Source: a virus (taxonomy: Duplodnaviria > Heunggongvirae > Uroviricota > Caudoviricetes). From it: a DNA stretch of 36,850 bases. Position 1 is the first letter of the stretch. Every line of letters starts with the position of its first letter. A program made the translations under genes and the position numbers. Positions 152 to 28,905 of the stretch are shown one piece after another. The notes under the pieces are model-generated. The model did not search any database and had not been told where the DNA came from. It saw only the letters and a list, made by a program, of their open reading frames with translations. The stretch is from the IMG/VR virus record IMGVR_UViG_2778261418_000018, positions 1-36,850 of that record. One strand, 5' to 3'.

Positions 152-227
<76 letters not shown>

Positions 228-281
228 GTTTAAAAGACATCGGCCTCAAGCGGATGTCTGGCTGAAAGGCCTGAAGAATTT

Positions 282-355
282 GGCGCGTTAACAAAGCGGT
301 TATGTAGCGGATTGCAAATCCGTCTAGTCCGGTTCGACTCCGGAACGCGCCTCCA
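282..355 (+). tRNA. cysT: tRNA-Cys, anticodon GCA
   Basis: GGCGCGTTAACAAAGCGGTTATGTAGCGGATTGCAAATCCG...GCGCCTCCA; anticodon loop ATTGCAAAT; second gene of the glyW-cysT-leuZ operon. Confidence 0.9.
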
Positions 356-367
356 CTTTCTTCCCGA

Positions 368-454
368 GCCCGGATGGTGGAATCGGTAGACACAAGGGAT
401 TTAAAATCCCTCGGCGTTCGCGCTGTGCGGGTTCAAGTCCCGCTCCGGGTACCA
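368..454 (+). tRNA. leuZ: tRNA-Leu, anticodon TAA (long variable arm)
   Basis: GCCCGGATGGTGGAATCGGTAGACACAAGGGATTTAAAATCCC...GGGTACCA; 87 nt with class II variable arm. Confidence 0.9.
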
Positions 455-2098: not shown

Positions 2099-3208
2099 TC
2101 ACTCTGTTTCCGCTATCCATTCCGGGATTTTTGCCTCAAGCTCAAGCTGCGTGGTAAAGCCGCTGTTATCAATGGTGTGCTCGGCTTTTGCAATAATCCA
2201 GTCCTGATTATCAATCTCGCTTTTAAATCCTGTTACCGTGCCATGCATTTCGGGGTAGAGTTCTGCACGTCCACGTGCCAGCGTGATGGAAAATGATGCG
2301 GCTCCGCGTTGTAGCTGCTGCCACTTTGCCGCCGCTGCGCGTCTTGCTGCCTGCTCGTTCTGATAAGTCTTGCGTAACACAAACACGTTGCCTTCCGCAC
2401 CTTCCATATAGTCACCTTCACGGCTGCTGCTTTTCTCCTTTTTAGGTTTTGGCGGTTTGCGGCGTTTCACGCTGACTTTTTTCTTTTTCCCGTAATTAAG
2501 ATCAAGCCAGTAAGCGCGTACCCCCGTATACGCCTCGCGGTCAGCAATGCGGAACTGATGGCGATCGCCGTTGCTGCGGGTGATGGAGAACGATGGCAAC
2601 GGCTGGCCCTGTGCGTTCACGCCACCGCCTGGCATGATGAATAACAGATTGCCGCTTTTTACCGTGGTGATTGCGCCCAGCATTTCCGCCATGCGCGTAA
2701 GGAAGGACATGTCGCTTTCTTCGGTCTGGTCGGCGTGGTCGATTTCGATATCCATCAGCATTTCGCTGATTTGCGGTTTCAGGCCGTACCGATGAGCGAT
2801 GGCGGATACCACGCGCTCAACGGTCACATCGTGCCAGGATACTTCACGTTTAACGTTAAATTCATCCCGAAAATCTGCGCTTCTGGCTGAAACAGTCAGC
2901 CTGTCCGGTGGTCCTTCGTGAGCGATTTCATCAACAATGTAGGTGCCTTTTTCAGTCAGCGGTTCCCCTTTCCAGCCAATGAGAACCGTCAGACGCGCGC
3001 CCCGTGGCGGTAGCTGCAACTGGCCATCGGCATCATCCAGCGTGATGGTGAGCTGGTCCGCCTCAAATCCCCGGTTGTCGGTCAGTGACAGGCTCATCAG
3101 GCGGTCTGCTACGCCGGACAGCGTTTTACCCTCCGCGAGAATATCAAAATCCGGCATTTTCACGGGGTCAGTGCCCTGGCTGAGCAATTGCATGGTGGTG
3201 TCGGTCAT
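2099..3208 (-). CDS. D: tail protein D (late control gene D family)
   Basis: LSLTDNRGFEADQLTITLDDADGQLQLPPRGA...SARSADFR...SWHD typical gpD; start moved to internal ATG at 3208 (MTDTTMQLL) preceded by RBS GGGAGGG. Confidence 0.85.
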   Translation of the reverse strand: MTDTTMQLLSQGTDPVKMPDFDILAEGKTLSGVADRLMSLSLTDNRGFEADQLTITLDDADGQLQLPPRGARLTVLIGWKGEPLTEKGTYIVDEIAHEGPPDRLTVSARSADFRDEFNVKREVSWHDVTVERVVSAIAHRYGLKPQISEMLMDIEIDHADQTEESDMSFLTRMAEMLGAITTVKSGNLLFIMPGGGVNAQGQPLPSFSITRSNGDRHQFRIADREAYTGVRAYWLDLNYGKKKKVSVKRRKPPKPKKEKSSSREGDYMEGAEGNVFVLRKTYQNEQAARRAAAAKWQQLQRGAASFSITLARGRAELYPEMHGTVTGFKSEIDNQDWIIAKAEHTIDNSGFTTQLELEAKIPEWIAETE

Positions 3209-3365
3209 CTGTTCCCTCCCTGTGCGGCATGGTCGCATGTGCGTGCGGAAGGGGTTACTGCTTTTTGTTGTCGCCGTGGCGGGAGAACGGCGCAGGGGTG
3301 AGATTACGCGCGTGGTAGGTGATGATTGTTGCTGAATCATTTAACGGATACAAGGGGCTGAAGCT

Positions 3366-4550
3366 ATGAGTGAAACTCGTTTTCATGGTGCCCGTGTTAC
3401 GGAAAATACCGACCTGGTAACAGCGATTAACGATGTTGATTCCAGCGTTATCGGTATCGTGGCAACGGCGGATGATGCGGACGCGAAGCTGTTCCCGCTG
3501 AACAAGCCCACACTGCTGACCCGCGTTAATGACGTGCTGGGAAAATGCGGGACAACGGGGACGCTTTATCGTGCGCTTAAGGCAATCGCAGACCAGGTGA
3601 GCACAAAGGTGATCGTCGTTCGCGTGGCTGAACACAAAGAAGAAGACGGAAAGACGCAGGATCAACTGGTTATCGGTGGTTCTGAGGATGACGGCAGCTA
3701 TACGGGGATGTATGCGCTGCTTGTTGCAGAGCAGGATGAAAGCATCGGATACCGTCCGCGTATTCTGGCAGCGCCGGAGCTGGACACGGAGGCTGTAACA
3801 AAATCCCTGTGCGTGATTGCGGGTAAACTGCGCGCGTTTGTGTATGCCTCATGTCATGGCTGTAACACGATGGCTGAGGCAATTACCTACCGCCAGAAAT
3901 TCAACGAACGTGAGGTGATGCTCTTATGGCCGGACTTCATCGCCTACAACCCGAAAAGTGGCAAAAACGAAACGTTCCCCGCGCCTGCCTATGCGTGCGG
4001 CCTTCGTGCGTACATTGACCATGAGCAGGGCTGGCACAAATCGCTGTCCAACGTTCCGGTTAAAAATGTGCTGGGGATGTCCAGGCATGTGTTCTGGTCG
4101 TTGCAGGCCGAAGACAGTGATGCCAACAGCCTCAACAACAAAGAAATCACGACCATTATTCGTCGCAACGGGTTCCGCTTCTGGGGCAACCGCACACCGG
4201 AAACGAACGCCTACATCTTTGAGGTGTATACCCGAACCGCACAGGTGCTGGCTGATTCAATTGCGGAAGCGCAGTTTGAAACCATCGACAGTCCACTGAC
4301 GCCTGCGAACGTGAAAGATGTTATCAGTGCCATCAGGGCAAAACTGGATTCACTGGTTACTGCCGGGAAACTGATTGGGGCGTCGTGCTGGTATGACGTG
4401 GTGGATAACGGCACCACGAATTTACGTCAGGGGCGCGTGCGTATTCGCTACAAATATACGCCTGTTCCCCCGCTGGAAGACATGGAGCTTTACCAGTCGT
4501 TTACTGATGAATTCTTTGGTCCCGCATTTGCGGTGCTGGGAGGTGCCTGA
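3366..4550 (+). CDS. FI: tail sheath protein FI
   Basis: 394 aa, P2 FI-like size and sequence (MSETRFHGARVTENTDLVTAINDVD...). Confidence 0.9.
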   Translation: MSETRFHGARVTENTDLVTAINDVDSSVIGIVATADDADAKLFPLNKPTLLTRVNDVLGKCGTTGTLYRALKAIADQVSTKVIVVRVAEHKEEDGKTQDQLVIGGSEDDGSYTGMYALLVAEQDESIGYRPRILAAPELDTEAVTKSLCVIAGKLRAFVYASCHGCNTMAEAITYRQKFNEREVMLLWPDFIAYNPKSGKNETFPAPAYACGLRAYIDHEQGWHKSLSNVPVKNVLGMSRHVFWSLQAEDSDANSLNNKEITTIIRRNGFRFWGNRTPETNAYIFEVYTRTAQVLADSIAEAQFETIDSPLTPANVKDVISAIRAKLDSLVTAGKLIGASCWYDVVDNGTTNLRQGRVRIRYKYTPVPPLEDMELYQSFTDEFFGPAFAVLGGA

Positions 4551-5062
4551 TGGCTGTACCAAAACATCTTCGCTTTTTTACGTTGTTTGTGGATGGTGAA
4601 AACGAAGTGGGTAAAGTGACATCCGTCACGCCGCCCAAACTGACGCGCAAAACCGACAGTTATCGTGGTGGTGGCATGATGGGGGCGGTAAGTATTGATC
4701 TCGGTCTGGACGACTCCGCGCTTGATGCGAGCTTTGTCATGGGGGGAGCTGTTCGTGCACTGTTCCTTAAGTATGGCGGCACGATTGACGGCACGCTGCT
4801 GCGTTTTGCGGGTGAATATTACACCGATGCAGAAAGCGATCTGTATGAAATCGAGATGCGCGGGCGTGTGACGGAAATTGATATGGGGGAGGCCAAACAG
4901 GGCGAAGCCACATCACACACATACGCTGTCAAAAACACCTACTACAAGCTGAGTGTTAACGATCGCCCGCTGTGGGAAATCGACCTGTTGAACCACATCT
5001 ACCGGAAGGACGGCAAGGACATTGTGCCTGACCGCATTCGCTCCGCGCTTGGGCTTGGCTGA
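4550..5062 (+). CDS. FII: tail tube protein FII
   Basis: 170 aa; start overlaps FI stop (TGATG); P2 FII-like. Confidence 0.9.
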   Translation: MAVPKHLRFFTLFVDGENEVGKVTSVTPPKLTRKTDSYRGGGMMGAVSIDLGLDDSALDASFVMGGAVRALFLKYGGTIDGTLLRFAGEYYTDAESDLYEIEMRGRVTEIDMGEAKQGEATSHTYAVKNTYYKLSVNDRPLWEIDLLNHIYRKDGKDIVPDRIRSALGLG

Positions 5063-5117
5063 TAAGTAATATGCAGGCGACGCAGTGCGTCGCCTCTGAC
5101 TGAAAAGGAGACAACTG

Positions 5118-5492
5118 ATGAAAGACATCGATACTGAAACCCGGAATAACACCGTAGCGGATGATGTGACGGCAGGTGAGGATATGGCTGTCGAACGTGG
5201 TGTAAAACTTTCCCGGCCAATTGAGCGTGGTGCCGAAAAAATCACATATGTGGAAATCACCGGGGCTATTGAGCAGGCGGGATCCCTGCGTGGTCTGTCG
5301 CTGTCTGATGTGCTGAATCTGAAAGCGGATACCATGTTCACGCTGTTGCCTCGCGTGACCTCGCCACGACTGGATGAAGTGATGATTAAAAAAATGTCGT
5401 CACGCGATTTTATTCAGTTGTGCGCTGCGGCTGTAAATTTTATGAGCGAGCCAGACTCTGGCGCGAAGAGCGTGCAGGAGACGGCAGCGTAA
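5118..5492 (+). CDS. E: tail assembly chaperone E (0-frame product); E+E' made by -1 frameshift into the frame open 5390..5656
   Basis: Position between FII and T; overlapping -1 frame ORF with no good start; slippery candidates AAATTTT (5435..5441) and A7 (5388..5394). Confidence 0.7.
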   Translation: MKDIDTETRNNTVADDVTAGEDMAVERGVKLSRPIERGAEKITYVEITGAIEQAGSLRGLSLSDVLNLKADTMFTLLPRVTSPRLDEVMIKKMSSRDFIQLCAAAVNFMSEPDSGAKSVQETAA

Positions 5493-5633
5493 TCACCCTG
5501 GTGTGCTTTGAGCACATCGAAGATCTGGTGGCGGATATTGCCGCCATTTTTAACTGGTCGCCCGCCGAAATCTTCATGATGACGCCCGGCGAAGTGGTTA
5601 GCTGGCGTGAGCGGGCGGCACTTCGCAGCGGGA

Positions 5634-8450
5634 ATGCAGATAATGAAGACTCTTGACATCCGGGTCGCTTTCAGCGCCGTTGACAGGCTGACCCGGCCTG
5701 CCGAAAACGCCCGCCGCCTGATGGGGCAGTTTGGTGACTCCATCCAGCGAACGCAGGGGGCGATCAAAAATCTCGAGCGTCAGGCGCGTTCATTTGAGCG
5801 CGCCCGCGACGCTGTCAGTAAAGCGGATGCGGGTATCGTGAAAGCACGACGCCAGCTTAACGCCCTTAATCAGTTACAACGCACGGGTACAGTGCTCAGC
5901 GAAAAACAACAAAAGCTGATGCAGCAGTTAAGCACCCGGCTTGAACGCCTGAATGAATCGCGCACACGGGAAATTCAGAAAATGCGGGAGCTTGGCGGAG
6001 AGCTGAAACGCCACGGCATTTCCCTGACAGGCAGCGATAACACCATCCAGCAGGCCATCAGACGCACCGAACAGTACAACAACCAGCTTGAACGCGAACG
6101 GCAGGCGCTTGCGCGTGTAACGCGGGCGCGTGAGCGGTATTCGCGCGCGCAGGAAACAGCGGGAAAACTGAAAACAGGTGGTGCGCTGGCAATTGGTGCG
6201 GCAGCGGCGGGCGGCTATGCTGCCGGGCGTTTTTTGCAGCCTGCGATCGGGTTCGGGAAAGAAATGTCCCGCGTTCAGGCACTGACGCGAATCGACAAAA
6301 ACAGCCCGCAGTTTAAGGCGCTGCGTGAGCAGGCGTTAAAACTTGGCTCTGAAACGCAGTTCACCGCAGGCGATGCCGCCAGTGGGCAGGCATTTCTTGC
6401 AATGGCTGGCTTCACACCACAGGCCATTCAGGCTGCGCTCCCTGGCGTACTGAGCATGGCAACGGCTGGCGGTATGGACCTCGGTGAGACGGCGGATATT
6501 GGCTCAAATATTCTGACGCAGTTCGGTCTTTCTGCTGACCAGATGGGCCGGGTCGGCGACACACTCACCGCAGCGTTTACCCGTACCAACACTGACCTTC
6601 GCGCACTGGGTGAAACCATGAAATATGCAGGTCCGGTGGCGGGTAAGCTGGGAATATCGCTGGAGCAGGCCGCAGCGATGGCGGGCGTGCTGGCGAATAT
6701 GGGTATCAGGGGGAGTGATGCTGGTACGGCAATGCGTGCCAGCCTGGCTCGTCTGGCATCACCGCCAAAGGCGGCAGCAGAGGCGCTGAAAGAGCTTGGC
6801 GTGTCTGTCTCGGATGCCGGGGGCAAAATGCGCCCGATGGAGGATGTGCTGGCTGACCTTTATAAAGCTACCCGCAAATACGGGGAAGTTGACCGGGTAT
6901 CGTTCTTTAAGGACATTGCCGGAGAAGAGGCTTTCACATCATTTATGGCCCTCGTTGATGCGGCAGGTGACGGCTCCTTACCCAAACTGAGAAAAGAACT
7001 TGAAGGCGCGCGCGGTGAGGCTGAACGCACGGCAAAGGTTATGGCCAACAACCTTGACGGCGATTTGAAATCACTCAGCAGTGCATGGGAAGGGTTGCGC
7101 ATCCGCATTGCAGATCTGATTGACGGTCCGCTGCGTTCTGTCACGCAGTGGCTCACGCGTGTGGTATCAAAGGTGACGGCGCTGGCGCAGGCCCATCCCG
7201 CACTGACGCGCCAGCTACTGATTGCAGGCGGTGCACTGCTGGCAATGACTGCAACGGTTGGCTCGTTGTCGCTGGCTATTGGTGTGCTTGCTGGCCCGCT
7301 GGCAAAACTGCGTCTTGGTTTTTCCCTCCTGACCGGATCAATGAATGCTGTCAGGGTTCTGCCAGCACTATGGGGAATGGTGACGGGTTCCGTTTCTTTA
7401 CTGGGAGGCGCTATCGGGGCGTTGTTCAGTCCGGTTGGTCTTATCGTGGCTGCGCTTGCCGGAGCTGCCGTTCTTATCTGGAAATACTGGGATCCCATCA
7501 GGGCATTTTTTGCCGGGGTGTTCAGCGGGATTATGGAAAGGCTGACCCCGTTGCGCGAAACCTTTGAACGGTTTGGTCCTGTTTTTGACGCAATCGGAAG
7601 CGGGATCAGCCAGGTGTTTAACTGGTTTAAATCGCTGTTGTCACCGATGGAGTCCAGCAAGGAAACGCTGGATAAATGCACCAGTGCTGGCGAGGTATTC
7701 GGCAACGTTCTTGGTGGCGCGTTACAGCTTGTTCTGACGCCAGCAAAAATGTTGCTGGATACGCTGGCGTGGATACTTGAAAAACTCGGTGTGCTTCCGG
7801 ATGAAGCGGAAAGGACGAGAAAGAAAATCGAAGACGCACAGCGTGCGGCCATTCTTCAGGACAAGGTTGCCTTGCTTCAGGGTGACCTGGCGAAAATCAA
7901 TCCGCCGAAGCCTGTGGAAAATGGCAATGGCACCGGAGGTGATAAACCCAAAGACAACAAACCGCTCACAGACAGCAATACCGGTACGCTACGCAGACTC
8001 AGCAAAATTGCTGATAACACAGGTAAGCTGGTTGATGAGACGAAAAAACGCATTGGCCCCGGCGATATTGTCTTTAAGAACCTGCCCCGCGCACTTGCCG
8101 TTCGTGGGGAGTGGCAGGAGCGGAAGATTGCGCAGGTCAGTAAGCCTGCCCCCGCAATTAATATCACGCCTGTGGTTCCGGCCCCGCTGCCTCCGGCGCT
8201 GGTCCCTGTTGTTGCGGCCAGCTCCCGCCCGGTGGCGGAGGCCATACGATCGCCAGTGGCATCAGCCCCAACACCTTCGCGTAACCGGGAACCTGTTGCC
8301 TCAGGATTTGGCGATGAAATTCATGTTCATCTGCATAACGTTGTTACGCAGAATCCCCGCGAACTGGCGAAACTGGTCGGTGAAATGGTCAGGGCAGAAA
8401 TGGAACGGCGCGCCCGTGCTGGGCGTGGCAGTTTTTACGATAAAGATTGA
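5634..8450 (+). CDS. T: tail tape measure protein T
   Basis: ~940 aa, coiled-coil N-terminus, Gly/Ala-rich hydrophobic central region; ORF track start 5607 is GTG, ATG at 5634 or 5643 also possible. Confidence 0.85.
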   Translation: MQIMKTLDIRVAFSAVDRLTRPAENARRLMGQFGDSIQRTQGAIKNLERQARSFERARDAVSKADAGIVKARRQLNALNQLQRTGTVLSEKQQKLMQQLSTRLERLNESRTREIQKMRELGGELKRHGISLTGSDNTIQQAIRRTEQYNNQLERERQALARVTRARERYSRAQETAGKLKTGGALAIGAAAAGGYAAGRFLQPAIGFGKEMSRVQALTRIDKNSPQFKALREQALKLGSETQFTAGDAASGQAFLAMAGFTPQAIQAALPGVLSMATAGGMDLGETADIGSNILTQFGLSADQMGRVGDTLTAAFTRTNTDLRALGETMKYAGPVAGKLGISLEQAAAMAGVLANMGIRGSDAGTAMRASLARLASPPKAAAEALKELGVSVSDAGGKMRPMEDVLADLYKATRKYGEVDRVSFFKDIAGEEAFTSFMALVDAAGDGSLPKLRKELEGARGEAERTAKVMANNLDGDLKSLSSAWEGLRIRIADLIDGPLRSVTQWLTRVVSKVTALAQAHPALTRQLLIAGGALLAMTATVGSLSLAIGVLAGPLAKLRLGFSLLTGSMNAVRVLPALWGMVTGSVSLLGGAIGALFSPVGLIVAALAGAAVLIWKYWDPIRAFFAGVFSGIMERLTPLRETFERFGPVFDAIGSGISQVFNWFKSLLSPMESSKETLDKCTSAGEVFGNVLGGALQLVLTPAKMLLDTLAWILEKLGVLPDEAERTRKKIEDAQRAAILQDKVALLQGDLAKINPPKPVENGNGTGGDKPKDNKPLTDSNTGTLRRLSKIADNTGKLVDETKKRIGPGDIVFKNLPRALAVRGEWQERKIAQVSKPAPAINITPVVPAPLPPALVPVVAASSRPVAEAIRSPVASAPTPSRNREPVASGFGDEIHVHLHNVVTQNPRELAKLVGEMVRAEMERRARAGRGSFYDKD

Positions 8451-8456
8451 GGAGTC

Positions 8457-8951
8457 ATGGCCATGATGATGATCTACGGCATGTTTGTTTTTGAGCTGCG
8501 CACGCTGCCGCATCAGCAGTTACAGCAAAACAAAAGCTGGCGGCATGTGAAAAATGAACGCGTTAACCGTTCAGCAAGCTGGCAGTATATCGGTGCAGGT
8601 GATGATCGCATCGTTCTTTCTGGTGTGCTTTATCCTGAAATTACAGGTGGCGAAGTGTCGCTGTCGCTGCTGACCACGCAGGCGTATACAGGACGACCCT
8701 GGCCTTTGATTGATGGCGTCGGGCAGATTTACGGCATGTATGTCCTGACCGGAACGAATACGACCCGTTCCGAGTTTGATCGCTACGGTAAGGCGAAAAA
8801 GATAGAATTTTCACTGACCCTTGAACGCTGTGATGAGGATTTGCGGGAGCGCCTGCAATCCTCATCGTTCAGTGATATGCTGTCCGGCTTCAAAGATAAG
8901 GTCACATCATCCCTTAACAGCGCGGCCAGCTCCGTTAAAGGGCTGTTTTGA
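8457..8951 (+). CDS. U: tail protein U
   Basis: 164 aa, follows T as in P2 FETUD operon. Confidence 0.8.
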   Translation: MAMMMIYGMFVFELRTLPHQQLQQNKSWRHVKNERVNRSASWQYIGAGDDRIVLSGVLYPEITGGEVSLSLLTTQAYTGRPWPLIDGVGQIYGMYVLTGTNTTRSEFDRYGKAKKIEFSLTLERCDEDLRERLQSSSFSDMLSGFKDKVTSSLNSAASSVKGLF

Positions 8952-8958
8952 TTAACGC

Positions 8959-8988
8959 AAAACCGCTAATGGTCAGATTAGCGGTTTT
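8959..8988 (+). terminator. hairpin terminator after U, overlapping the invertase stop codon
   Basis: AAAACCGCTAAT-GGTCAG-ATTAGCGGTTTT then CATTTTCC; T-run only on the plus strand. Confidence 0.7.
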
Positions 8989-9577
8989 CATTTTCCTGAG
9001 TCTGCCTGGTTGTTTCTTCAGCCTGTATATCGCCTACAGGGTGATAACGATAAATTGTCGATATGCCGATGTCGTAAATGATCGCCAGTTGTTTCCTGTC
9101 ATGACCGTTTTTGATCAGCCTTGCTATTTGCTCATGCTGTTCTTTTGTCAGCTTCGGGCGACGTCCGCCTGTGCGCCCCCGTGCGCGCGCTGCCGCCAGT
9201 CCGGCCAGTGTACGTTCAACAATTAATTCACGTTCCATTTCAGCCAGGGCACCCATCACGTGGAAGAAAAAACGCCCCATTGGAGAAGATGTATCTATGC
9301 TGTCTGTCAGACTGCGAAAATTAATCCCTCGCTCCCGTAGTTCTCCGACGAGAGAAATCAGATGTTTCATGCTTCGCCCAAGGCGATCCAGTTTCCAGAC
9401 AACCAGCGTGTCACCTTTTTGAAGCCGCTTTAAAGCGCGTTTTAATCCCGGTCGGTCTGTCTTTGTCCCGCTTAATTTATCTTCAAATATTTGTTCACAT
9501 CCTGCACAAACAAGAGCGTTTCGTTGCAGGTCTGTATTCTGGTCATTTGTTGATACCCTTACATAACCAATCAGCAC
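8978..9577 (-). CDS. serine recombinase, DNA invertase of the Gin/Hin/Pin/Cin family
   Basis: LIGYVRVSTNDQNTDLQRNAL...GDTLVVWKLDRLGRS...MGRFFFHVMGALAEMERELIVERT; probable GTG start at 9577 giving MLIGYVRVS (ORF track start 9595 is TTG). Confidence 0.85.
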   Translation of the reverse strand: MLIGYVRVSTNDQNTDLQRNALVCAGCEQIFEDKLSGTKTDRPGLKRALKRLQKGDTLVVWKLDRLGRSMKHLISLVGELRERGINFRSLTDSIDTSSPMGRFFFHVMGALAEMERELIVERTLAGLAAARARGRTGGRRPKLTKEQHEQIARLIKNGHDRKQLAIIYDIGISTIYRYHPVGDIQAEETTRQTQENENR

Positions 9578-9631
9578 ACTGAATCTCCCGTCCAAAAGCG
9601 CAAATCATGCCATGCAGGCCGGAAACGGCCA

Positions 9632-9657
9632 TTATCTAAAACCTCGGTTTACAGGAA
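9632..9657. other. gix/hix-like recombination crossover site (left)
   Basis: TTATCTAAAACCTCGGTTTACAGGAA, very close to the Mu gix site as I recall it; part of an ~80-bp inverted repeat with 12621..12701. Confidence 0.75.
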
Positions 9658-9660
9658 ACG

Positions 9661-10638
9661 GTAAATCAGGCTTCTGGCGCATTACAGAAAAACCAGAACG
9701 GCGCAGATATTCCCGATAAAAAACTATTCCTGCGTAATATCGGCACAACAAATTCAACAACCATGTCTTTTAGTGGTGGTGCTGGATGGTTCAAACTGGC
9801 AACTGTAACAATGCCACAAGCCAGTTCCGTGGTTTACATAAGCCTGATTGGTGGCGCAGGGTATAACGTTGGCTCCCCGCAGCAAGCTGGCATATCTGAG
9901 CTGGTTCTGCGTGCAGGAAATGGGAATCCAAAAGGTATTACTGGTGCATTATGGCGACGGACCTCGGTTGGATTTACTAATTTTGCATGGGTGAATACAT
10001 CCGGTGATACCTATGACATTTATGTAGAAATAGGTAATTACGCCACAGGTGTTAATATCCAGTGGGATTATACAAAGGATGCAACTGTACAAATTCATAC
10101 ATCACCAACTTATACAGCGAATAAACCAACAGGCCTGACAGATGGAACTGTATATGTAATTTACAGTTCGCACATTAAACCGACTGCTGCTGATGTTGGG
10201 GCGTTGTCATTATCTGGAGGTCAATTGAATGGTGCACTGGGCATCGGAACATCCAGTGCTCTTGGCGGTAACTCGATTGTTTTGGGTGATAATGACACGG
10301 GCTTTAAACAAAATGGCGACGGTAATCTGGACGTTTATGCTAATAACGTCCATGTTATGCGCTTTGTCTCCGGCAGCATTCAAAGTAATAAAACCATAAA
10401 TATTACAGGGCGTGTTAACCCCTCGGATTACGGTAACTTTGATTCCCGCTATGTGAGAGATGTCCGACTTGGCACACGTGTTGTTCAGACTATGAAAAAA
10501 GGTGTGATGTATGAAAAATCAGGCCATGCAATTACGGGGCTTGGCATTATCGGCGAAGTTGATGGTGATGACCCCGCAGTATTCAGACCAATACAAAAAT
10601 ACATCAATGGCACATGGTATAACGTTGCGCAGGTGTAA
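9661..10638 (+). CDS. alternative tail-fibre C-terminal segment (Sv'-like), promoterless and start-less in this orientation
   Basis: Frame is open from the crossover site; first 18 codons (VNQASGALQKNQNGADIP) identical to the corresponding part of H; C-terminus ...RPIQKYINGTWYNVAQV parallels H ...RPIQYCINGTWYNAGSI. Confidence 0.7.
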   Translation, partial: VNQASGALQKNQNGADIPDKKLFLRNIGTTNSTTMSFSGGAGWFKLATVTMPQASSVVYISLIGGAGYNVGSPQQAGISELVLRAGNGNPKGITGALWRRTSVGFTNFAWVNTSGDTYDIYVEIGNYATGVNIQWDYTKDATVQIHTSPTYTANKPTGLTDGTVYVIYSSHIKPTAADVGALSLSGGQLNGALGIGTSSALGGNSIVLGDNDTGFKQNGDGNLDVYANNVHVMRFVSGSIQSNKTINITGRVNPSDYGNFDSRYVRDVRLGTRVVQTMKKGVMYEKSGHAITGLGIIGEVDGDDPAVFRPIQKYINGTWYNVAQV

Positions 10639-10641
10639 ATT

Positions 10642-11166
10642 ATGCAGCATTTAAAAAACATTAAGTCAGGTAATCCAAAAACAAAAGAACAATATCAGCT
10701 AACAAAGAATTTTGATGTTATCTGGTTATGGTCCGAAGACGGAAAAAACTGGTATGAGGAAGTGAAAAACTTTCAGCCAGACACAATAAAGATTGTTTAC
10801 GATGCAAATAATATTATTGTCGCCATCACCAAAGATGCCTCCACGCTTAACCCTGAAGGTTATAGCGTCGTTGAGGTTCCTGATATTACAGCTAATCGTC
10901 GTGCTGATGATTCCGGTAAGTGGATGTTTAAGGACGGAGCTGTGGTTAAACGGATTTATACGGCAGACGAGCAACAACAGGCCGAATCACAAAAGGCCGC
11001 GTTACTTTCCGAAGCAGAAAGCATTATTCAGCCACTGGAACGCGCTGTCAGGCTGAACATGGCAACAGATGAGGAGCGTAGCCGACTGGAAGCATGGGGA
11101 CGCTACAGTGTTATGGTCAGCCGTGTGGATACGGCAAAGCCAGAATGGCCACAAAAGCCTGAGTAA
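10642..11166 (+). CDS. tail-fibre assembly chaperone (alternative copy, U'-like)
   Basis: 174 aa, clearly similar to 11195..11728 ([22 protein letters not shown]... vs [22 protein letters not shown]...). Confidence 0.8.
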
Positions 11167-11171
11167 AAATT

Positions 11172-11191
11172 AAGGCCCGATATCGGGCCTT
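11172..11191. terminator. bidirectional terminator between convergent assembly-chaperone genes
   Basis: Perfect palindrome AAGGCCCG-ATAT-CGGGCCTT with A/T runs on both sides. Confidence 0.7.
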
Positions 11192-11194
11192 CTC

Positions 11195-11728
11195 TCATTC
11201 TGGTTGTTCTGGAAACGTTACTGGCAGGCTGGAGGTGTCTGTGGATTCGACTTTCTGCGCAAAGAGCATCCACTCTGTTAATTTTTGTTTATTCTCGTCG
11301 GAAATGATGCCCAGCCGTAGCTGTGAGTCCCATAGCTGGGTTTTATCCCTGACGAGCTGTAGCAGGCTTTGCTTTTCATTTTCCGCCTGCTGCCTCTGCT
11401 CTTCCGCGGTATAAGTTCGCTTTACCACTACGCCATCTTTGAACATCCATTTACCCGAAATGTCAGCACGGCGATTTGCTGTAATATCAGGTAATTCAAC
11501 GACGCTTGCGCCTTCCGGATTAATTGCTGAAACATCCTTTTCAATACAAATAATAACGCCGTTATGGTCATAGACCATTTTCAAAGTGTCTGGCTGGAAA
11601 TTCTTTTGTTCCTCATACCAGTTTTTTCCATCATCTGAATAAAGCCATTTGATGTTAAATTGCTTTGTTAGCTGGTATTGCTCTTTTGTTTTAGGGTTGC
11701 CAGCAGTAATGTTTTTTAAGTGCATCAT
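11195..11728 (-). CDS. G: tail-fibre assembly chaperone (expressed copy, P2 G-like)
   Basis: 177 aa directly downstream of H. Confidence 0.8.
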   Translation of the reverse strand: MMHLKNITAGNPKTKEQYQLTKQFNIKWLYSDDGKNWYEEQKNFQPDTLKMVYDHNGVIICIEKDVSAINPEGASVVELPDITANRRADISGKWMFKDGVVVKRTYTAEEQRQQAENEKQSLLQLVRDKTQLWDSQLRLGIISDENKQKLTEWMLFAQKVESTDTSSLPVTFPEQPE

Positions 11729-11730
11729 CG

Positions 11731-13833
11731 TTAAATACTCCCCGCGTTATACCACGTCCCATTAATGCAATACTGAATTGGCCTTGCCTGAGTTGTATCA
11801 ATTAATGCATCACGGTTTCCGTTAACTGAACCCGTAACGACATAACCTGACCTGTCAGACCAGCCGGGGCCATTCCATGTCTGAACAGATGACAGACCGC
11901 CAAGGCGAATACCTGTAATAAACCTTGAGTTACATTCTGCCTGCGTGTATGCACCAACATCTCCCGCAGAGGGTTTGCGGGTCGTGGTGTAAAACTCTGA
12001 CCAGTCAGCCTCAAATCCATAACCATCACGCGCTGAACGATAAAAAATACCGCCGTTCCTGTAATTCACGCGGAACTGTACAGCAGGGCAGCTCCCCGTA
12101 TTCATATTGAAGTGGAGGATTAATGTCGATGCGCCACCAATGTTTGCGTTATAGACCCCGCTATTCCAGTTCCAGCCAACAGCTTTATCATTTCCGACAG
12201 TGCTTCCTGTTTGCCCTAAAGCAAATGCAGGTTGTTGATTTTTCGTGTTGTAGTCTCGTCGCCAGCCAGGAGCGTAAGCATCACCATGATTAATATAAGT
12301 GAATTGAGCGTTATTAATTCCGCCACCGCTGGACGTGCTCGGCGTAGTAACGCGTATGGTCATTGCGCCGCGAGTGCCAATAACTTCCACCACAGCACCT
12401 GCAAGACAAATATTTCCGCAACCTGTATCTGTAATGACCTTATTATTTGCATAAGCCCATGAGCCTTTGCACATCCAGTAAGGATGGTTAAATGCTCCCT
12501 GACTCTCCAGCCACGAAATAAATTGCGCGGTTGTCCAGACCTGACTATCGCCACCAATATTCAGCCATGCGCTATATGCGCGGCAGGCCCCAATATTTTT
12601 GGTGAAGGTATCTTTTCCCGGAATATCTGCGCCGTTCTGGTTTTTCTGTAATGCGCCAGAAGCCTGATTTACCGTTTCCTGTAAACCGAGATATTCGATA
12701 ACAGCGGCAACGGTCGATTTCGCAAGAATATCCCGCCCGACTTTTGTCAGGGTTGCCAGGCTGGCGACATCATTCCCCGTAAAATACGGAAACTTGTCTG
12801 CCGCAGTAGCAAGCCCGGCCAGCGCCGTCAGGGTGGCATCTTTCGGTTGCTTACCCGCAAGCGCGTTAGTCATGGTGGTCGCAAAATTCGGGTCGTTTCC
12901 CAGCGCCGCCGCTAACTCGTTCAGCGTATTCAGTGCGTCAGGTGACGAATCTACAAGGGCGGCAATCGCGGCCATCACATAAGCCGTGCTTGCGATCTGA
13001 GTATTATTAGTACCTTTTGGCGCAGTTGGCGTTGTTGGCGTTCCAGTCAGCGCCGGGCTGTTTAATGGGGCTTTCTTGTTCGTTTCATCCATTACCGCCT
13101 TAACCGCTTTTGGTGTCGCTGCCAGCGTTTCAGACGTGCTGTTGGTTGCATTGCTGAGCTGGACTATCCCTTTTCGTGCCGTCGTGGCGTCCTGAGCGGT
13201 ATATTTTCCGTTAGCCAGGTCATACGCGGCCTTAACCGCTTTCGGCGTTGCGGCCAGCGTTTCAGAATCGCTGTTAGTGGCGCTACTGAGTTGAACAAAG
13301 CCTTTTGCGGTCAGCGAGGCATCCGGGTGACGTCGTGACTGTTCATGCTCTTTCAGTTTGTCATCCACGTAATCCACTGTGGCCATCACCATGGTGTTAT
13401 CCACGGTAAGCGCCACGGTGGCAGTGCTGGATACGGTCAGAATGGTGCGAAATGTTTGTGCACGTCCGGACCCTTCGGCAACGGTTGGCTTGTAACTTTC
13501 GGCAGTATTGCCCACCGCGATTAAATCGCCGTGCTCATCAAATACACCAATTTCCCGGATCCAGAATCCGCCCGTTTCAGGAGGAATAACCAGCTCTGCA
13601 ATAATGCGGTTCTGATGTGTTGCGTCCAGGATGACGCGATTAACAGTATGTCGCCACACCTCATGCACCAGACGGGTCTGCTTACTGTCAGGTGTGGGCA
13701 ATGTACCGCCACCGTCGCCCACGGCCATATGAGTCAGGCGGACAGGCTTACCATCTGGCGCGGCTGCCTGCGCTAATTTTTTTGCACCCGTATCGGTGAT
13801 AACGGTTTTAAATTTTCGTGTTGTGGTACTCAT
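11731..13833 (-). CDS. H: tail fibre protein H (constant N-terminus plus currently joined variable C-terminus)
   Basis: 700 aa; tandem SETLAATPKAVKA repeats; crossover site inside the coding sequence at 12676..12701. Confidence 0.85.
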   Translation of the reverse strand: MSTTTRKFKTVITDTGAKKLAQAAAPDGKPVRLTHMAVGDGGGTLPTPDSKQTRLVHEVWRHTVNRVILDATHQNRIIAELVIPPETGGFWIREIGVFDEHGDLIAVGNTAESYKPTVAEGSGRAQTFRTILTVSSTATVALTVDNTMVMATVDYVDDKLKEHEQSRRHPDASLTAKGFVQLSSATNSDSETLAATPKAVKAAYDLANGKYTAQDATTARKGIVQLSNATNSTSETLAATPKAVKAVMDETNKKAPLNSPALTGTPTTPTAPKGTNNTQIASTAYVMAAIAALVDSSPDALNTLNELAAALGNDPNFATTMTNALAGKQPKDATLTALAGLATAADKFPYFTGNDVASLATLTKVGRDILAKSTVAAVIEYLGLQETVNQASGALQKNQNGADIPGKDTFTKNIGACRAYSAWLNIGGDSQVWTTAQFISWLESQGAFNHPYWMCKGSWAYANNKVITDTGCGNICLAGAVVEVIGTRGAMTIRVTTPSTSSGGGINNAQFTYINHGDAYAPGWRRDYNTKNQQPAFALGQTGSTVGNDKAVGWNWNSGVYNANIGGASTLILHFNMNTGSCPAVQFRVNYRNGGIFYRSARDGYGFEADWSEFYTTTRKPSAGDVGAYTQAECNSRFITGIRLGGLSSVQTWNGPGWSDRSGYVVTGSVNGNRDALIDTTQARPIQYCINGTWYNAGSI
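12676..12701. other. gix/hix-like recombination crossover site (right, inverted)
   Basis: Plus strand TTCCTGTAAACCGAGATATTCGATAA, reverse complement TTATCGAATATCTCGGTTTACAGGAA; inner arm and ~55 bp of adjoining sequence identical to the left copy. Confidence 0.75.
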
Positions 13834-13835
13834 GC

Positions 13836-14366
13836 TTAATCGTCCGGATAAATGGTAATGACTTCACCGTCGTAAGTTGCTGCCGCCGCGAAAATATCTC
13901 CAGGGATCTCCTGAATGATATTCAGCCCTGTCATGTGGCGGCTGACCGGGCGGGCATCAGCAATCAACCGCTCCATTTCCAGATACATTTCCTCCGTCAC
14001 GCCACTGTCCAGTGTGCCGACTTCAACGGTAAATGTTCCCGGTTCTCCGCCGAACTCCCACCATTCAGACACGCGAATGAGGTATCCCAGCGGCTCAATG
14101 GCCCTGCGCAGTGCGCTGATGGTCCCTTTGTGTCGGTGTATCAGCCATGCATCACGAATCACCTGTCGCTTTGTCTCTTCCGGCCAGTTGCGATCCCAGC
14201 GGTCAACGGAAAATGCCCAGGCGAGATAGGGCAGCAGATGCACCGGGCAGGTATCCGGCGACCACAGTGTGTTGAGGTCTACCGGAATGTCTGTAATGCG
14301 TGTTCCGACGGCTTCGGCACAACGCATGAAATTGCTGGCTGATGGTGGTAACAACGAATTACTCAT
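13836..14366 (-). CDS. I: baseplate protein I
   Basis: Start at internal ATG with RBS AAGGTGG gives 176 aa, the size I recall for P2 gpI. Confidence 0.8.
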   Translation of the reverse strand: MSNSLLPPSASNFMRCAEAVGTRITDIPVDLNTLWSPDTCPVHLLPYLAWAFSVDRWDRNWPEETKRQVIRDAWLIHRHKGTISALRRAIEPLGYLIRVSEWWEFGGEPGTFTVEVGTLDSGVTEEMYLEMERLIADARPVSRHMTGLNIIQEIPGDIFAAAATYDGEVITIYPDD

Positions 14367-15255
14367 TGCGCCCACCTTCGCTGATGGTGAATGACTCACA
14401 GCGCGCCGCCTGTATGTCGCTGATGGCCATATTCTGTGTGGGTTCGATTATCTCCACGCGTTGCACACCGTGCACATGCAGTGCGGCAGCAATGGCGGAC
14501 AACGCCACGTCCTGACCGATAAGCCCCTGCTCAGCCAGCCACTTCCTGAACGACGATTCCGCCGCAGCCAGAATAGGTTCGGATTCCGGACCGGGGTAAA
14601 AGTACAGTTTTGCATTCAGCCGCCATGTCACGATTCTGGCGCTCTGTACGGTCAGGCGGTCGGCCACCGGGCGGGTATCCTCTGCATTCAGAACGGCGCG
14701 AACGGTATTAAGCAACGCCTCCGTTGCTGTGCCGTCGCCCTCAGTGGACAGGATGGAAACCGTCACGTTGGCCGGAGACGGGCTGATGGCCCGCGCGTCA
14801 CGCACCAGACCGCTGGCGCTGCGGGCAAAATACTCGTATGCACCTGACGGGCCAGCAACACTCAGGCCGTCGTACGCCCGCTGCGCCCGCAGTCTCAGCG
14901 AGGTGTCGCTCTCCATCACCGCGTCGGTGGTATCCGTTGCCGGAGTGATAACCAGGCGCTTTGTGTTCATATTGCCCGCGAGGTTGTCCAGGTCTGTCCC
15001 GGCGCTGTGGCTTAACATGCAGGCGCGTGCACCCTCATTGACCCGCTGGCGTAACAGCATTTCACGAAACGCTGTTGTCTGGGCGATAACGTTCAGGGGT
15101 TCTGATTCCAGCTCCAGCGCGGCGGAGATGGCTTCACGCTGTTCGGCAGGATAGGACGCAATCATCATGGCCTTTGTGTCAGCCAGAATTGCCTCAAAGT
15201 CAGGCTCCGCGATGATGGCGGGGTCCGGTAACTGTGAAAGGTCAACGGCAGGCAT
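14359..15255 (-). CDS. J: baseplate protein J
   Basis: 298 aa, P2 J-like position and size. Confidence 0.85.
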   Translation of the reverse strand: MPAVDLSQLPDPAIIAEPDFEAILADTKAMMIASYPAEQREAISAALELESEPLNVIAQTTAFREMLLRQRVNEGARACMLSHSAGTDLDNLAGNMNTKRLVITPATDTTDAVMESDTSLRLRAQRAYDGLSVAGPSGAYEYFARSASGLVRDARAISPSPANVTVSILSTEGDGTATEALLNTVRAVLNAEDTRPVADRLTVQSARIVTWRLNAKLYFYPGPESEPILAAAESSFRKWLAEQGLIGQDVALSAIAAALHVHGVQRVEIIEPTQNMAISDIQAARCESFTISEGGRNE

Positions 15256-25534: not shown

Positions 25535-27760
25535 TTACGAACGAATAGGAATTGATGTTTGCGGTTGAATTGGCACGAGCACCTGATTATAAGTACGTAA
25601 AATTTCGTTATACAGGTCTTGGTGCTTTGATGCCTTAATGGTAATTATAAGAGCATACTTGATTTTTTCTGCCTTATGGCTGGCTATGCTTGCACCGGCC
25701 TCACGAGCGTTATAATGAATGTCAAATACAGGATTTTTTAGAGTTGAACCTAGCATGTTCTTCGAATTATGTAAGACGGTCTCCCACTTGCCCATGTCAG
25801 AACGTCGCTCACTTTCAGTTGAATATTTGGCCAGTTCAAAGAATCCCTTGGTTTCAGCATTTTGTTTTCCGTCTTTGATTTTTGAATCATTTGGCCGGAA
25901 TGTCACTTCCAAACCAGCTTTTGTATAGGACGCTGGGTCTTGTGGATCAGTGGTTGTTGCATAACAGAAAGTTGCCGCTAAGTTTATTCTACCTTTCAAG
26001 CCACCTTCAGGTATTGGAAGAGAAGCGCGTAAGTATTTTCCTGGTTTCAATTCACCTTGGTAGACGATACGGGCAACACCATCAGGGCTGACTATAATGT
26101 CGTTCAAGTCTTCAGGCAGTTTTCCCCAGCCAACTTCTGTACAAGGATGATCAAGCTGTTTTGACGCATGAATTAACAAAGCTTTGATTGCTAGTAGGCT
26201 CAAATCGTTCCCTAAAATTGCCCGAACACCAACAGCTGCTCGTAAGGCGTAAGGAGAGGCAAAGCTTGTTCCTAGCTGGGGTATGATTACAGGCTTCTTA
26301 CCTTTACCTAAAACATGAAAGTACTCGTCTGTGTCACCACCAAACGCAACTAAATCCGGTTTCATCACGCCAGGACTTCTGCCTGGCCCAATGGCGCTAT
26401 ATGGTGCTCGTTTCCATTCCGTATCATTAACTGTATCACAAGCACCAACAGCAAGAGCATTAACGCAATCGGCTGGTACTTGAATTCTTGCATTACCAGA
26501 CTTGCGATCCATTTCTCCATTGTTGCCAACAGCAACAGTCATTAATGTTTCACCATCACTTAACAAATCATCAATAACGGAAGTCCATGCATGAACTTCC
26601 GTATCTTCAATTGGTAGGTCTGGACCTAAACTTAGATTGATAAACTGATACTGGCGAGACAACAATACCTCTTCAATAAAGCCCAAAGTTCGATATAGTT
26701 CCAGCGGATCTTCTTGGCAGGTCTTGTTGTCCAAAACTCTTAAGTTATCAATATAAGAGTATGGTCTTTTCGCTTCCGATTTATTACTTATTGGTCCAAA
26801 TAAAAAGGCTGAAGACACAGCTAAACCATGCTCTAAACCGTCTGGATCATCCTCTGCATGATCGTCCAAAACTCTATAGGATTTTAACCATGGCGATATA
26901 GCGTGCTCTGATGGTAAACCACCATCAAGAATCGCAACTTTTATTTCTGAAGATACGGGGCCCTCAGCAGGTAATTTACACTGAGCTAAAGGACCGTAGT
27001 TCCTTTGTATTGGTCTAATCCCACGCAATCTTGGAACCGGTCTTATTACTCGTACAAATGTAAATTTCGCAAGCTTACTAATAGTAATTCTATCGGCCTG
27101 GATTGGCACGAACCATAATGTACCAGCGGTAAAAGCTAATGAAGTATGTACTTTGATGTTCAAATTTGATGCAAACTGAACAAATTGTTGCTGAACCAAG
27201 TCTTGTTCATTATCTGGCAGTAAATGAACACCAACCTCAAAATACGAAGAATCCTGCTCACCAATGGTAATAATACGCTCTTCGGGTAAATAGGCATCGA
27301 ACCGTTCTATGCGTGCAAAATCAATCGCTTCGTCAGAAAACTCTTTGAGTCCTGACACCCAATGAGGTAACTCTTTGAAGGATTCTCTTTTACCAGCAAC
27401 AAACATTTGTGTCGTAGTTACTTCTGACACAGTAACTTTTCGCTTCCAGCTTTGAGGCGTAATTTTTACCGTCCTGCTGCCAATAGACGTTAACCCGGTA
27501 GACTTAAGCATTTTTGCAGGAAAAAAAGAGCGTGCAATATAGCTTGGATTCAACGTCAACTTAGCCACAGCATAATCATAAGGACATGCCTGACTGGGTA
27601 AATCATCAAAATTTTCTATAGTAGATGCAATTTGCGGCAATAAACGTTGTTTCGATTCGTAAAGAGAATAAACCTCAGCTTTTCCGGGCACTCTTTTAGG
27701 ACCAGGAATATCGCTGGTTAATAATTCGCCGCGTCCAATCAGAAAATTAGTTTTCGCCAT
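25535..27760 (-). CDS. S8 family subtilisin-like serine peptidase with large N- and C-terminal extensions (candidate IetS-like)
   Basis: Catalytic motifs in order VAILDGG (Asp), HGLAVSS (His), AVGNNGE (oxyanion Asn), GTSFASP (Ser); RBS AGGAG 8 nt before ATG. Confidence 0.8.
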   Translation of the reverse strand: MAKTNFLIGRGELLTSDIPGPKRVPGKAEVYSLYESKQRLLPQIASTIENFDDLPSQACPYDYAVAKLTLNPSYIARSFFPAKMLKSTGLTSIGSRTVKITPQSWKRKVTVSEVTTTQMFVAGKRESFKELPHWVSGLKEFSDEAIDFARIERFDAYLPEERIITIGEQDSSYFEVGVHLLPDNEQDLVQQQFVQFASNLNIKVHTSLAFTAGTLWFVPIQADRITISKLAKFTFVRVIRPVPRLRGIRPIQRNYGPLAQCKLPAEGPVSSEIKVAILDGGLPSEHAISPWLKSYRVLDDHAEDDPDGLEHGLAVSSAFLFGPISNKSEAKRPYSYIDNLRVLDNKTCQEDPLELYRTLGFIEEVLLSRQYQFINLSLGPDLPIEDTEVHAWTSVIDDLLSDGETLMTVAVGNNGEMDRKSGNARIQVPADCVNALAVGACDTVNDTEWKRAPYSAIGPGRSPGVMKPDLVAFGGDTDEYFHVLGKGKKPVIIPQLGTSFASPYALRAAVGVRAILGNDLSLLAIKALLIHASKQLDHPCTEVGWGKLPEDLNDIIVSPDGVARIVYQGELKPGKYLRASLPIPEGGLKGRINLAATFCYATTTDPQDPASYTKAGLEVTFRPNDSKIKDGKQNAETKGFFELAKYSTESERRSDMGKWETVLHNSKNMLGSTLKNPVFDIHYNAREAGASIASHKAEKIKYALIITIKASKHQDLYNEILRTYNQVLVPIQPQTSIPIRS

Positions 27761-27783
27761 ACATACTCCTTATCTATGCTGTA

Positions 27784-28905
27784 TTACATTTTTTGACTGT
27801 ATTTTCTAATTGTATCCCTACTGACTCCGGTTAAGTCTGATATGGCATGCTGGGATAATTTAGAATTTCTTTTTAGAGTAACTGCAATTTCTTTACGTTC
27901 ATTCCTGTCTAATTCTGATAAACCATCTTTAATGAACGACCCAATCAACTCTTCATCTGAGGAAATACCTAAAGCGACCGAACGTCGGAATTTGTTGATA
28001 GAACGCTCAATATTACTAAAAGATTCATTTTTGAACATAATAGCCAGTAGATCTATCCAACGTGCAAAAATCGCGTAGTCGGGACCCGAAAAGCGTTTAA
28101 TTGCTTCTTTAATACTTTCGCTATCTGGCTTCTCAAAATTGAGCACTAAATCAAAACGTCTCCATAGTGCTGGATCAATCAACTCAGCGAAGTTAGTTGC
28201 AGCAAGTAGCAAACTAGAAGACGGCCATTCGTCAACCTCCTGGAGTATCACGGTAACAAGTCTTTTTAATTCTCCAACATCAGAATCATCACTTCTCTTT
28301 TTGGCGATTGAATCAATTTCATCTAACAGAAGAACGCACGGCCCTTTCTTCGCAAAATCTAGAGCTGCCCGAAGGTTATTTCCGCTTTTGCCCAGATAGC
28401 TGCTCATTACTGCCGTTAAATCAAGAACGTAAAAAGGAACCCCTAATTTCTGAGCTAACCAGCTTGCCGTAAGTGTTTTACCTACACCCGGAGGGCCAAC
28501 AAAAATGGCAGAGCGTGTTGGTTGTAAGCCGAGAGTCTTGAGGCGATCGATGTGCTTCCGCTCAAGAATAATTTGATCCAGTGAGTCTTCTATCTGACTG
28601 GACAGTAGAGGTTTGCTCACAATCTTTTCATTTGGTGCTTTAAGCAAGGTAAGCCTTGACTCCTCGTCCACAGGCATGGTTTGAGGCAGCGCTTGTTTTG
28701 GTGCGGTAACCTTACGCAGGCTTTGTGCAGGCTTTTGCGGTTTATTTCGTAGATAAAGATCAAGCTGCTCGGATAGAGCAGGCATAGTTTCCCGATATTT
28801 ACGCACCAAGCGAGCGACATATAACCGAACGTCATCATACTGTTCAGTTATTACCAGTCTAACTAGTTGGGCTAAATCTGACTGAATACCACCTAAGTCG
28901 CCCAT
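27784..28905 (-). CDS. AAA+ ATPase (classic clade) with possible C-terminal HTH (candidate IetA-like)
   Basis: Walker A GPPGVGKT, Walker B VLLLDEID, sensor-1 LLLAATN, RRFD; C-terminal LSQHAISDLTGVSRDTIRKY. Confidence 0.8.
   Translation of the reverse strand: MGDLGGIQSDLAQLVRLVITEQYDDVRLYVARLVRKYRETMPALSEQLDLYLRNKPQKPAQSLRKVTAPKQALPQTMPVDEESRLTLLKAPNEKIVSKPLLSSQIEDSLDQIILERKHIDRLKTLGLQPTRSAIFVGPPGVGKTLTASWLAQKLGVPFYVLDLTAVMSSYLGKSGNNLRAALDFAKKGPCVLLLDEIDSIAKKRSDDSDVGELKRLVTVILQEVDEWPSSSLLLAATNFAELIDPALWRRFDLVLNFEKPDSESIKEAIKRFSGPDYAIFARWIDLLAIMFKNESFSNIERSINKFRRSVALGISSDEELIGSFIKDGLSELDRNERKEIAVTLKRNSKLSQHAISDLTGVSRDTIRKYSQKM

Follow-up and report, generated by a model that had tools for sequence, protein, structure and literature searches.

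A probable Gin-family tail-fibre inversion switch with a variant recombination site in a P88-like prophage

Gin-family invertible tail-fibre segments have been textbook systems since the 1980s. In phages Mu and D108 the G segment and the invertase gene gin are laid out in the order constant fibre part, gix site, fibre tip, chaperone, hairpin, chaperone, fibre tip, gix site and invertase, with the 5' end of the invertase gene towards the segment. Phages P1 and P7 carry the C segment with its recombinase Cin, and the same recombinase family includes Hin, with the H segment of Salmonella, and Pin, with the P segment of the E. coli element e14. Here we describe a locus in a stretch of viral DNA of 36,850 nucleotides (nt), IMG/VR record IMGVR_UViG_2778261418_000018, referred to below as the window. 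The window is almost the whole of a P2-related prophage, and this carrier is a Xuanwuvirus element (P88-like, P2-related Peduoviridae). A segment of 3,044 bp (9645-12688), with the invertase gene that adjoins it, follows the Mu order throughout. We conclude that the region is very probably a Gin-family inversion switch, homologous to the Mu G segment, placed in the tail-fibre operon of the prophage. Taken by themselves, the identity of the switch and its mechanism are hardly in doubt.

The likeness extends beyond layout. The segment is 88-97% identical in DNA sequence to the invertible segments of Mu, D108, SfMu, P1, P7, D6 and P88 and, judged by this identity, it is a true homologue of the G segment rather than a region of similar architecture. 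The first-pass annotation, made from the letters of the window without database searches, had proposed a switch of the Mu G or P1 C type with gix-like sites and an adjacent invertase of the Gin/Hin family; that proposal is borne out and, at such levels of identity, was understated. Over the matched part of the segment the identity to Mu and D108 is 93-97%, and the S'/U' side, which includes the U'-type chaperone gene, is nearly identical. P1 and P7 share with the window a homologous region of U, U' and Sv' (88-93% DNA identity) and 26-bp sites of the same family (cixR is TTATCCAATACC TT GGTTTAAGAGAA); the enhancer of P1 lies inside the recombinase gene, where one is predicted for the window too.

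The locus also differs from each of these systems. The carrier is a P2-related prophage and not a transposable Mu-like phage, the constant fibre part is a P2-type H (700 residues, with a collar domain) and not Mu Sc, and the second tip is not Mu Sv. The inverted repeat measures 89 nt here and 34 bp in Mu, the DNA-binding domain of the invertase has diverged, and the site inside H carries an A at position 12691. The P1 arrangement has cin with its 3' end towards the segment, a core dinucleotide of TT instead of TC, and a segment 4.2 kb long with long internal inverted repeats. Hin flips a promoter instead of coding ends, and the hin gene lies inside its segment, while e14 is a defective lambdoid element that likewise fuses alternative fibre ends (PMC4272514). 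The mechanism involving Fis and an enhancer is common to the Hin and Pin systems (PMC3798978). The same genomic setting is found in the Xuanwuvirus phages Escherichia P88, 503458 and 520873, where the genes from the sheath to T and U are followed by an annotated DNA invertase, an invertible segment and H-I-J-W-V. Compared with these phages and with the P2-like loci of the enteropathogenic E. coli (EPEC) strain E2348/69, the pairing of tips in the window, an S' type with a vB_YpM_5/L-413C type, is less common, and the A12691 allele was not seen there.

The two 26-bp recombination sites lie where they had first been placed, the left one on the side of the invertase gene and its inverted partner inside H (Table 1). 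The gix sequence taken directly from the Mu record, where it stands at both ends of G, is TTATCCAAAACCTCGGTTTACAGGAA; the left site differs from it at one position and the H-side site at three. When up to three mismatches were allowed, gix-like matches occurred at exactly these two places in the 36.85 kb and at none in 100 shuffles of the window. The left site is identical to the left site of the inverting E. coli relatives. Read from the outer to the inner half, the central dinucleotide is TC at both sites, which for inverted sites is the arrangement required for inversion and not deletion. Positions 6-4 of the half-sites are A or T in all four, and positions 3-2 are CC in three of the four.

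The sites head inverted-repeat arms of 89 nt that are 93% complementary and include a perfect stretch of 71 bp (9643-9713). The inverted repeats recognized at first are thus present but longer than the original estimate of about 80 bp, with some 55 bp identical. A chance inverted repeat was considered and ruled out, given a perfect match of this length beside a Gin homologue and the absence of matches in the shuffles. A third gix-like site or a shufflon, as described in one EPEC P2-like prophage, was sought across the window; only the two sites are present, which makes the locus a two-state switch and not a shufflon. In the early region a 14-mer with two mismatches, at 33647, is at chance level, as is a weak gix-like dyad, TAATGCAAAAATGCGGTTTCCGGTAA (33630-33660), that agrees with 16 of 22 consensus positions; the core of this dyad is GC, which makes it incompatible with the real sites. 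No relevant compilation of gix, cix, hix and pix sites came up in a literature search.

Between the sites lie two opposed sets of fibre C-terminus and assembly chaperone. This had been claimed in the first-pass annotation and is confirmed by the open reading frames and by Pfam matches of both chaperones to Caudo_TAP. The frame of the plus-strand alternative is open from the crossover, as was also noted at first, but the repeat encodes 24 residues, LGLQETVNQASGALQKNQNGADIP, that are common to this silent frame and H, not the 18 codons originally counted. A TAA at 9637-9639, directly before the silent frame, falls within the outer half-site and would therefore be left behind on inversion. When 9645-12688 was inverted in silico, the result was an intact H' of 712 residues, the first 405 of which are those of H, followed 3 nt on by the chaperone gene of 174 codons. 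Thus, both orientations are productive.

The expressed tip is identical at 315 of 319 residues (99%) to the variable part of Mu S', which places the window in the state equivalent to Mu G(-). The silent tip has 98% amino acid identity to the tips of the Mu-like Yersinia phages vB_YpM_5/6, and it is a mosaic: gpH of the P2-like Yersinia phage L-413C shares 93% identity with its last 159 residues, and the fibres of Salmonella phages SJ46 and ST64B share 61-64% with its first 240 or so. It is not Mu Sv, to which it bears only a distant likeness. H has a P2-type collar domain, and Pfam identified in it Phage_tail_fib and Phage_fiber_2 repeats; neither the fibre nor the chaperone proteins could be assigned to a specific NCBIfam family. 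Within its constant part, H also contains a 96-nt direct repeat (13097-13192 and 13229-13324, with 74% identity and a spacing of 132 nt) that corresponds to the two Phage_fiber_2 repeats.

The palindrome between the convergent chaperone genes had been read as a bidirectional terminator. The hairpin is real and is kept in Mu with one loop difference, but only half of the claim stands, since the T-tract is on the minus strand alone: the hairpin passed a terminator scan on that strand (tail AATTTTTACT) and not on the plus strand (tail CTCTCATTCT).

The invertase gene lies just outside the segment, as expected from the first reading, and is intact, with no frameshift and no stop. The mechanically called open reading frame spans 8978-9595 and reaches a TTG at 9595; the shorter form listed in Table 1 has the invertase length annotated in related phages. 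The protein matches Pfam Resolvase (E 1.3e-50) and HTH_7, aligns end to end with the Gin structures 4m6f and 3uj3 (E about 1e-101), and contains the catalytic Ser9 (in YVRVSTNDQ) as well as Met114; NCBIfam returned below-cutoff matches only. Overall, it is 82% identical to Mu Gin, and it is nearly identical across the catalytic domain. The gene is a mosaic relative to gin, with nt 1-360 being 94-97% identical (194 of the first 200 nt) and the last 240 nt (360-600) only about 50%. The break coincides with the boundary of the catalytic and DNA-binding domains. The DNA-binding domain is diverged from about residue 121 and matches the structure of the Hin DNA-binding domain, 1hcr (E 1.7e-11).

A Fis-bound enhancer had been anticipated in the 5' part of the invertase gene. 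Nucleotides 19-90 of the gene are identical to Mu gin at 72 of 72 positions and align with nt 19-90 of cin, the stretch given in the RefSeq record of P1 as the enhancer for inverting C; we infer that this stretch is a putative Fis-binding recombinational enhancer. For Mu, a site within gin and a host factor are cited as stimulating inversion (Kahmann 1985, as cited in PMC10434027). A scan for two G-N13-C sites 48 bp apart gave a pair, 9532-9518 and 9484-9470, that is shared with Mu but ambiguous, as conservation with the P1 enhancer points to other 15-mers. Because this pair is not tied to mapped sites, we rely on the identity to Mu for the placement of the enhancer.

Table 1. Positions of the switch components and of neighbouring prophage genes in the window.
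Feature	Position	Strand	Remarks
Left (invertase-side) 26-bp recombination site	9632-9657	+	TTATCTAAAACCTCGGTTTACAGGAA; crossover dinucleotide TC at 9644-9645
Right (H-side) 26-bp recombination site, inside H	12676-12701	-	Minus-strand reading TTATCGAATATCTCGGTTTACAGGAA; crossover dinucleotide at 12688-12689
Left arm of inverted repeat	9632-9720	+	
Right arm of inverted repeat, inside H	12613-12701	-	
Serine DNA invertase (Gin family), 199 residues	8978-9577	-	Likely start GTG at 9577, by alignment to the gin start
Enhancer-equivalent stretch (putative)	9488-9559	-	Invertase gene nt 19-90; 72/72 identical to Mu gin
Hairpin flanked by A and T runs, where the gpU and invertase genes converge	8959-8988	.	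Terminator-like; overlaps invertase stop at 8978
Silent alternative fibre C-terminus	9640-10638	+	332 codons; without its own start codon at the junction
Silent tail-fibre assembly chaperone (U-type), 174 residues	10642-11166	+	Pfam Caudo_TAP, E 5.5e-35; 3 nt after the tip gene
Palindromic GC-rich hairpin between convergent chaperone genes	11172-11191	.	8-bp stem
Expressed tail-fibre assembly chaperone (U'-type), 177 residues	11195-11728	-	Pfam Caudo_TAP, E 3.9e-36
Tail fibre gene H, 700 residues	11731-13833	-	Constant part 12689-13833; variable part currently fused 11731-12688
tRNA-Gly(gcc), tRNA-Cys(gca), tRNA-Leu(taa) cluster	152-454		Left end
gpD	2099-3340	-	
Sheath, tube, E, tape measure, gpU	3366-8951	+	gpU at 8457-8951
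Invertase, segment, then H-I-J-W-V, predicted lysis and head genes		-	After gpU
Predicted terminase and portal, gpA, integrase			Further right; integrase at 35849-36850, running off the right end

In the proposed working of the switch, the late operon V-W-J-I-H would read into the segment, the tip adjoining constant H would be translated as its C-terminus with the cognate chaperone next, and the central hairpin would end the transcript. The sequenced orientation would yield a fibre with a Mu S'-type tip together with the U'-type chaperone; after inversion, a tip of 331 residues of the vB_YpM_5/L-413C type would complete a protein of 712 residues, and the other chaperone would be made. Exchanging the tip in this way would alter the set of bacteria open to infection. 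By analogy with Gin and Hin, invertase dimers would bind both 26-bp sites and host Fis would bind the enhancer in the first 90 or so nt of the invertase gene. The resulting complex would cut both sites at the central TC, turn one half by 180 degrees and rejoin the ends.

Close relatives carry the segment in both orientations. Queries of 6 kb (8400-14400), either native or with 9645-12688 reverse-complemented, were scored as matching when at least 80% of the query length was found in one place. By this measure, 176 E. coli complete genomes hold the segment in the orientation of the window and 161 in the flipped one. The near-clonal O145 isolates RM9467-C1 and RM9872 have loci of 8,260 bp at the same chromosomal position with identical flanks of 2,314 bp and 2,781 bp, and the intervening 3,165 bp, bounded by the repeat, of one is the exact reverse complement of the other. 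The invertase protein of this pair is 100% identical to that of the window. In a single assembly of E110019, the chromosome (NZ_CP035755.1) and a 25-kb linear extrachromosomal record (NZ_CP035751.1) have the segment in opposite orientations; the doubled prophage region is probably an assembly by-product of a mixed population. The chromosomal copy in E110019 also has a 1-nt indel that frameshifts H. The segment of P88, the type species of Xuanwuvirus, is oriented opposite to that of the window. Among IMG/VR and metagenome loci the S' tip stood next to H in 37 and not in 5, a count given no weight here because the 52-nt exact pattern behind it is orientation-neutral only if both repeat arms are identical. 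Furthermore, for invertible loci in the P2-like prophages of EPEC, sequencing and polymerase chain reaction have provided measurements of phase variation (PMC4272514). A close relative of the locus in E. coli A36 (NZ_CP028739.1, 1088-1676) has a frameshifted invertase; its tape-measure and baseplate genes are frameshifted too, and the locus is either a decaying copy or a product of low-quality assembly.

Several points weigh against reading the copy in the window as an ordinary, freely working switch. The outer half-site on the H side is TTATCGAATATC, with A at 12691 on the plus strand, compared with TTATCGAATACC in every invertible relative fetched. It reads TC and not CC at positions 3-2 from the centre, the T being at position 3, a feature that the first-pass annotation overlooked and that may impair recombination. 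Gaj et al. found that the Gin catalytic domain tolerated only CC, CG, GG and TG at positions 3-2, and they list TC as not accepted by the parental enzyme (PMC3616721). In invertible context, that is, next to a G-type repeat, the T allele was absent from all of the complete E. coli genomes whose junctions matched at full length (at least 264), from the metagenome contigs, where 11 had the C allele, from all 31 IMG/VR contigs found when either base was allowed, and from the GTDB species representatives. Additionally, Fis binding, a requirement for Fis and the identity of the two host ranges are predicted by homology, and flipping of this copy is predicted from relatives in which both orientations are known, whereas this exact element is represented by one sequence. 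Finally, the inversions in relatives are bounded by the perfect repeat, and with breakpoints inside it sequence alone cannot separate site-specific from homologous recombination.

The half-site variant raises the possibility, which we regard as doubtful, that this prophage has a Mu G-type switch that is locked or turns only very slowly, with the base at 12691 blocking the cutting of the H-side half-site and the S'-type fibre fixed as a result. The intolerance of the Gin catalytic domain for TC and the absence of the allele from every other invertible-context junction searched both favour this explanation, and so does the distribution of the allele. A12691 is synonymous (TAT versus TAC, Tyr381), and all of the invertible relatives examined have G at this position. 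The T allele itself is not rare: phage P2 has it, and so do 272 complete E. coli genomes. The T-allele loci examined belong to ordinary prophages of the P2 type that lack an invertase and have one relic site, in H; the sequence there is not under selection for recombination. In P2, a 34-bp gix-like sequence, TTATCGAATATCTCGGTTTACAGGAAACGGTAAA, that includes the T allele is found where the constant and variable parts of H meet (NC_001895, about 2857-2890), and the constant part is about 95% identical to that of the window over the 100 nt upstream of the site. P2 has only this one site and lacks an invertase and a second set of tip and chaperone, and its gix-like sequence looks like a relic or a point of module exchange. 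The variable part of P2 H at this sequence is Mu Sv-like. The pattern of alleles appears to fit selection for C at half-site position 3 in working sites. Moreover, a second base 12 nt upstream (GCTGT versus GCCGT) matches the P2-like prophage of strain CFSAN051542, though not P2 itself, and suggests a short conversion tract from a P2-type H gene. Through such a tract, or through a point change, the P2-type H allele might have given rise to a naturally disabled or slowed switch, an outcome that we put forward only tentatively.

Other considerations point the other way. Natural hixR has GG at positions 3-2 in one half-site and is still functional. In the window the change affects a single half-site of the four that make up the synapse, and the rest of the system is intact. 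In the published assay, by contrast, every half-site carried the change, and the enzyme was a zinc-finger fusion of a hyperactive catalytic domain, without the native DNA-binding domain and Fis (PMC3616721). Of the five arm residues with which the invertase reads positions 3-2, two are not those of Gin, V120 and T136 standing in place of I120 and I136, and the specificity of Gin may therefore not transfer to this enzyme. We consider it reasonably likely that this particular copy of the Gin-family switch still flips at a normal rate, and we hold back from a firmer statement because of the base at 12691.

It is far less plausible that the differences in orientation among relatives arose from RecA-dependent homologous recombination between the repeats of 71-89 bp and not from the invertase. 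This explanation would accommodate the breakpoints of the natural pairs, which can be placed only somewhere in the perfect repeat. However, the orientations are split about 1:1 over the 337 genomes, and flips are seen between isolates otherwise identical over 8 kb and also within one assembly, which indicates high flipping rates of the kind measured at prophage loci driven by an invertase (PMC4272514). RecA acts poorly on a repeat of 71 bp, and the repeat here begins exactly at a gix-type site beside an intact Gin homologue. The even split and the flips between otherwise identical isolates appear to fit invertase-driven switching much better than homologous recombination. A role in varying the killing spectrum of a tailocin, as in carotovoricin Er, in place of the host range of a viable phage is just as improbable: P2-type tail clusters with invertible fibres are cited as serving as bacteriocins in some enterobacteria (cited in PMC4272514), but the window holds a full phage gene set, and the element probably lies beside a tRNA cluster and is colinear with P88, a complete phage genome record.

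The carrier prophage was characterized from its remaining genes. Pfam identified the gpA replication protein, the integrase, the tail sheath, gpU, gpD and gpI, and the capsid, scaffold, terminase, portal and lysis genes are predicted from the sizes of their open reading frames and from colinearity with the annotated phages P88 and 503458. At the left end ogr and hok are annotated in relatives. The flanks of the window are Escherichia-like at 97%, the closest match among complete E. coli genomes covers 98% of the 6-kb query at 96% identity, and the prophage probably adjoins the tRNA Gly-Cys-Leu cluster. Between the portal gene and the gpA replication gene an S8 peptidase (741 residues) and an AAA ATPase (373 residues) are present as cargo (25535-28905, minus strand) and were matched by PADLOC to the two partners of the IetS/IetA system for defence against phages (E 3e-51 and 1e-77).

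The gene order around the switch departs from that of P2, where G is followed by fun(Z) and then by FI-FII-E-T-U-D, all on one strand. The FI-FII-E-T-U tail block is inverted relative to P2 in the window, in P88 and in phage 503458. It converges on V-W-J-I-H-G with the invertase between them, and the order is the same in P88 and 503458, where a DNA invertase is annotated. The locus had been assigned to the interval from G to FI; one of its neighbours is indeed G, which it follows in the manner of P2 fun(Z), but on the other side the inverted FI-U block places gpU and not FI next to it, and the invertase gene stands tail-to-tail with that of gpU. The gpD gene is split off beyond FI, a position seen in the window only. 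The start codons of D and FI are 25 bp apart (3340 and 3366), and divergent promoters would thus have to sit inside coding sequence. Relics of gix were sought at the ends of the FI-U block (about 3340-3366 and 8951-8978) as a trace of a past flip by the invertase, and none was found there.

Both the system and its genomic setting are already known, and the site variant is the only new element described here. Annotations of phages P88 and 503458 already include this locus, which is also widespread among E. coli prophages. An annotation of the fibre gene should list two alternative products, of 700 and 712 residues, and the 'partial' tip beside the invertase is a silent cassette and not a pseudogene. 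Assemblies of such prophages may report either orientation. A12691, which alters a specificity-determining position, offers a small natural test of how strongly one defective half-site affects a native invertase. If this base does disable the switch, the prophage would be fixed with a Mu S'-type fibre, and one way for invertible fibre switches to be lost would be exchange with the relic gix that ordinary P2 H genes contain. With one predicted tip of the Mu S' type and another of a Yersinia-phage type akin to gpH of L-413C, the phage may be hedging between hosts that differ in their cell-surface receptors.

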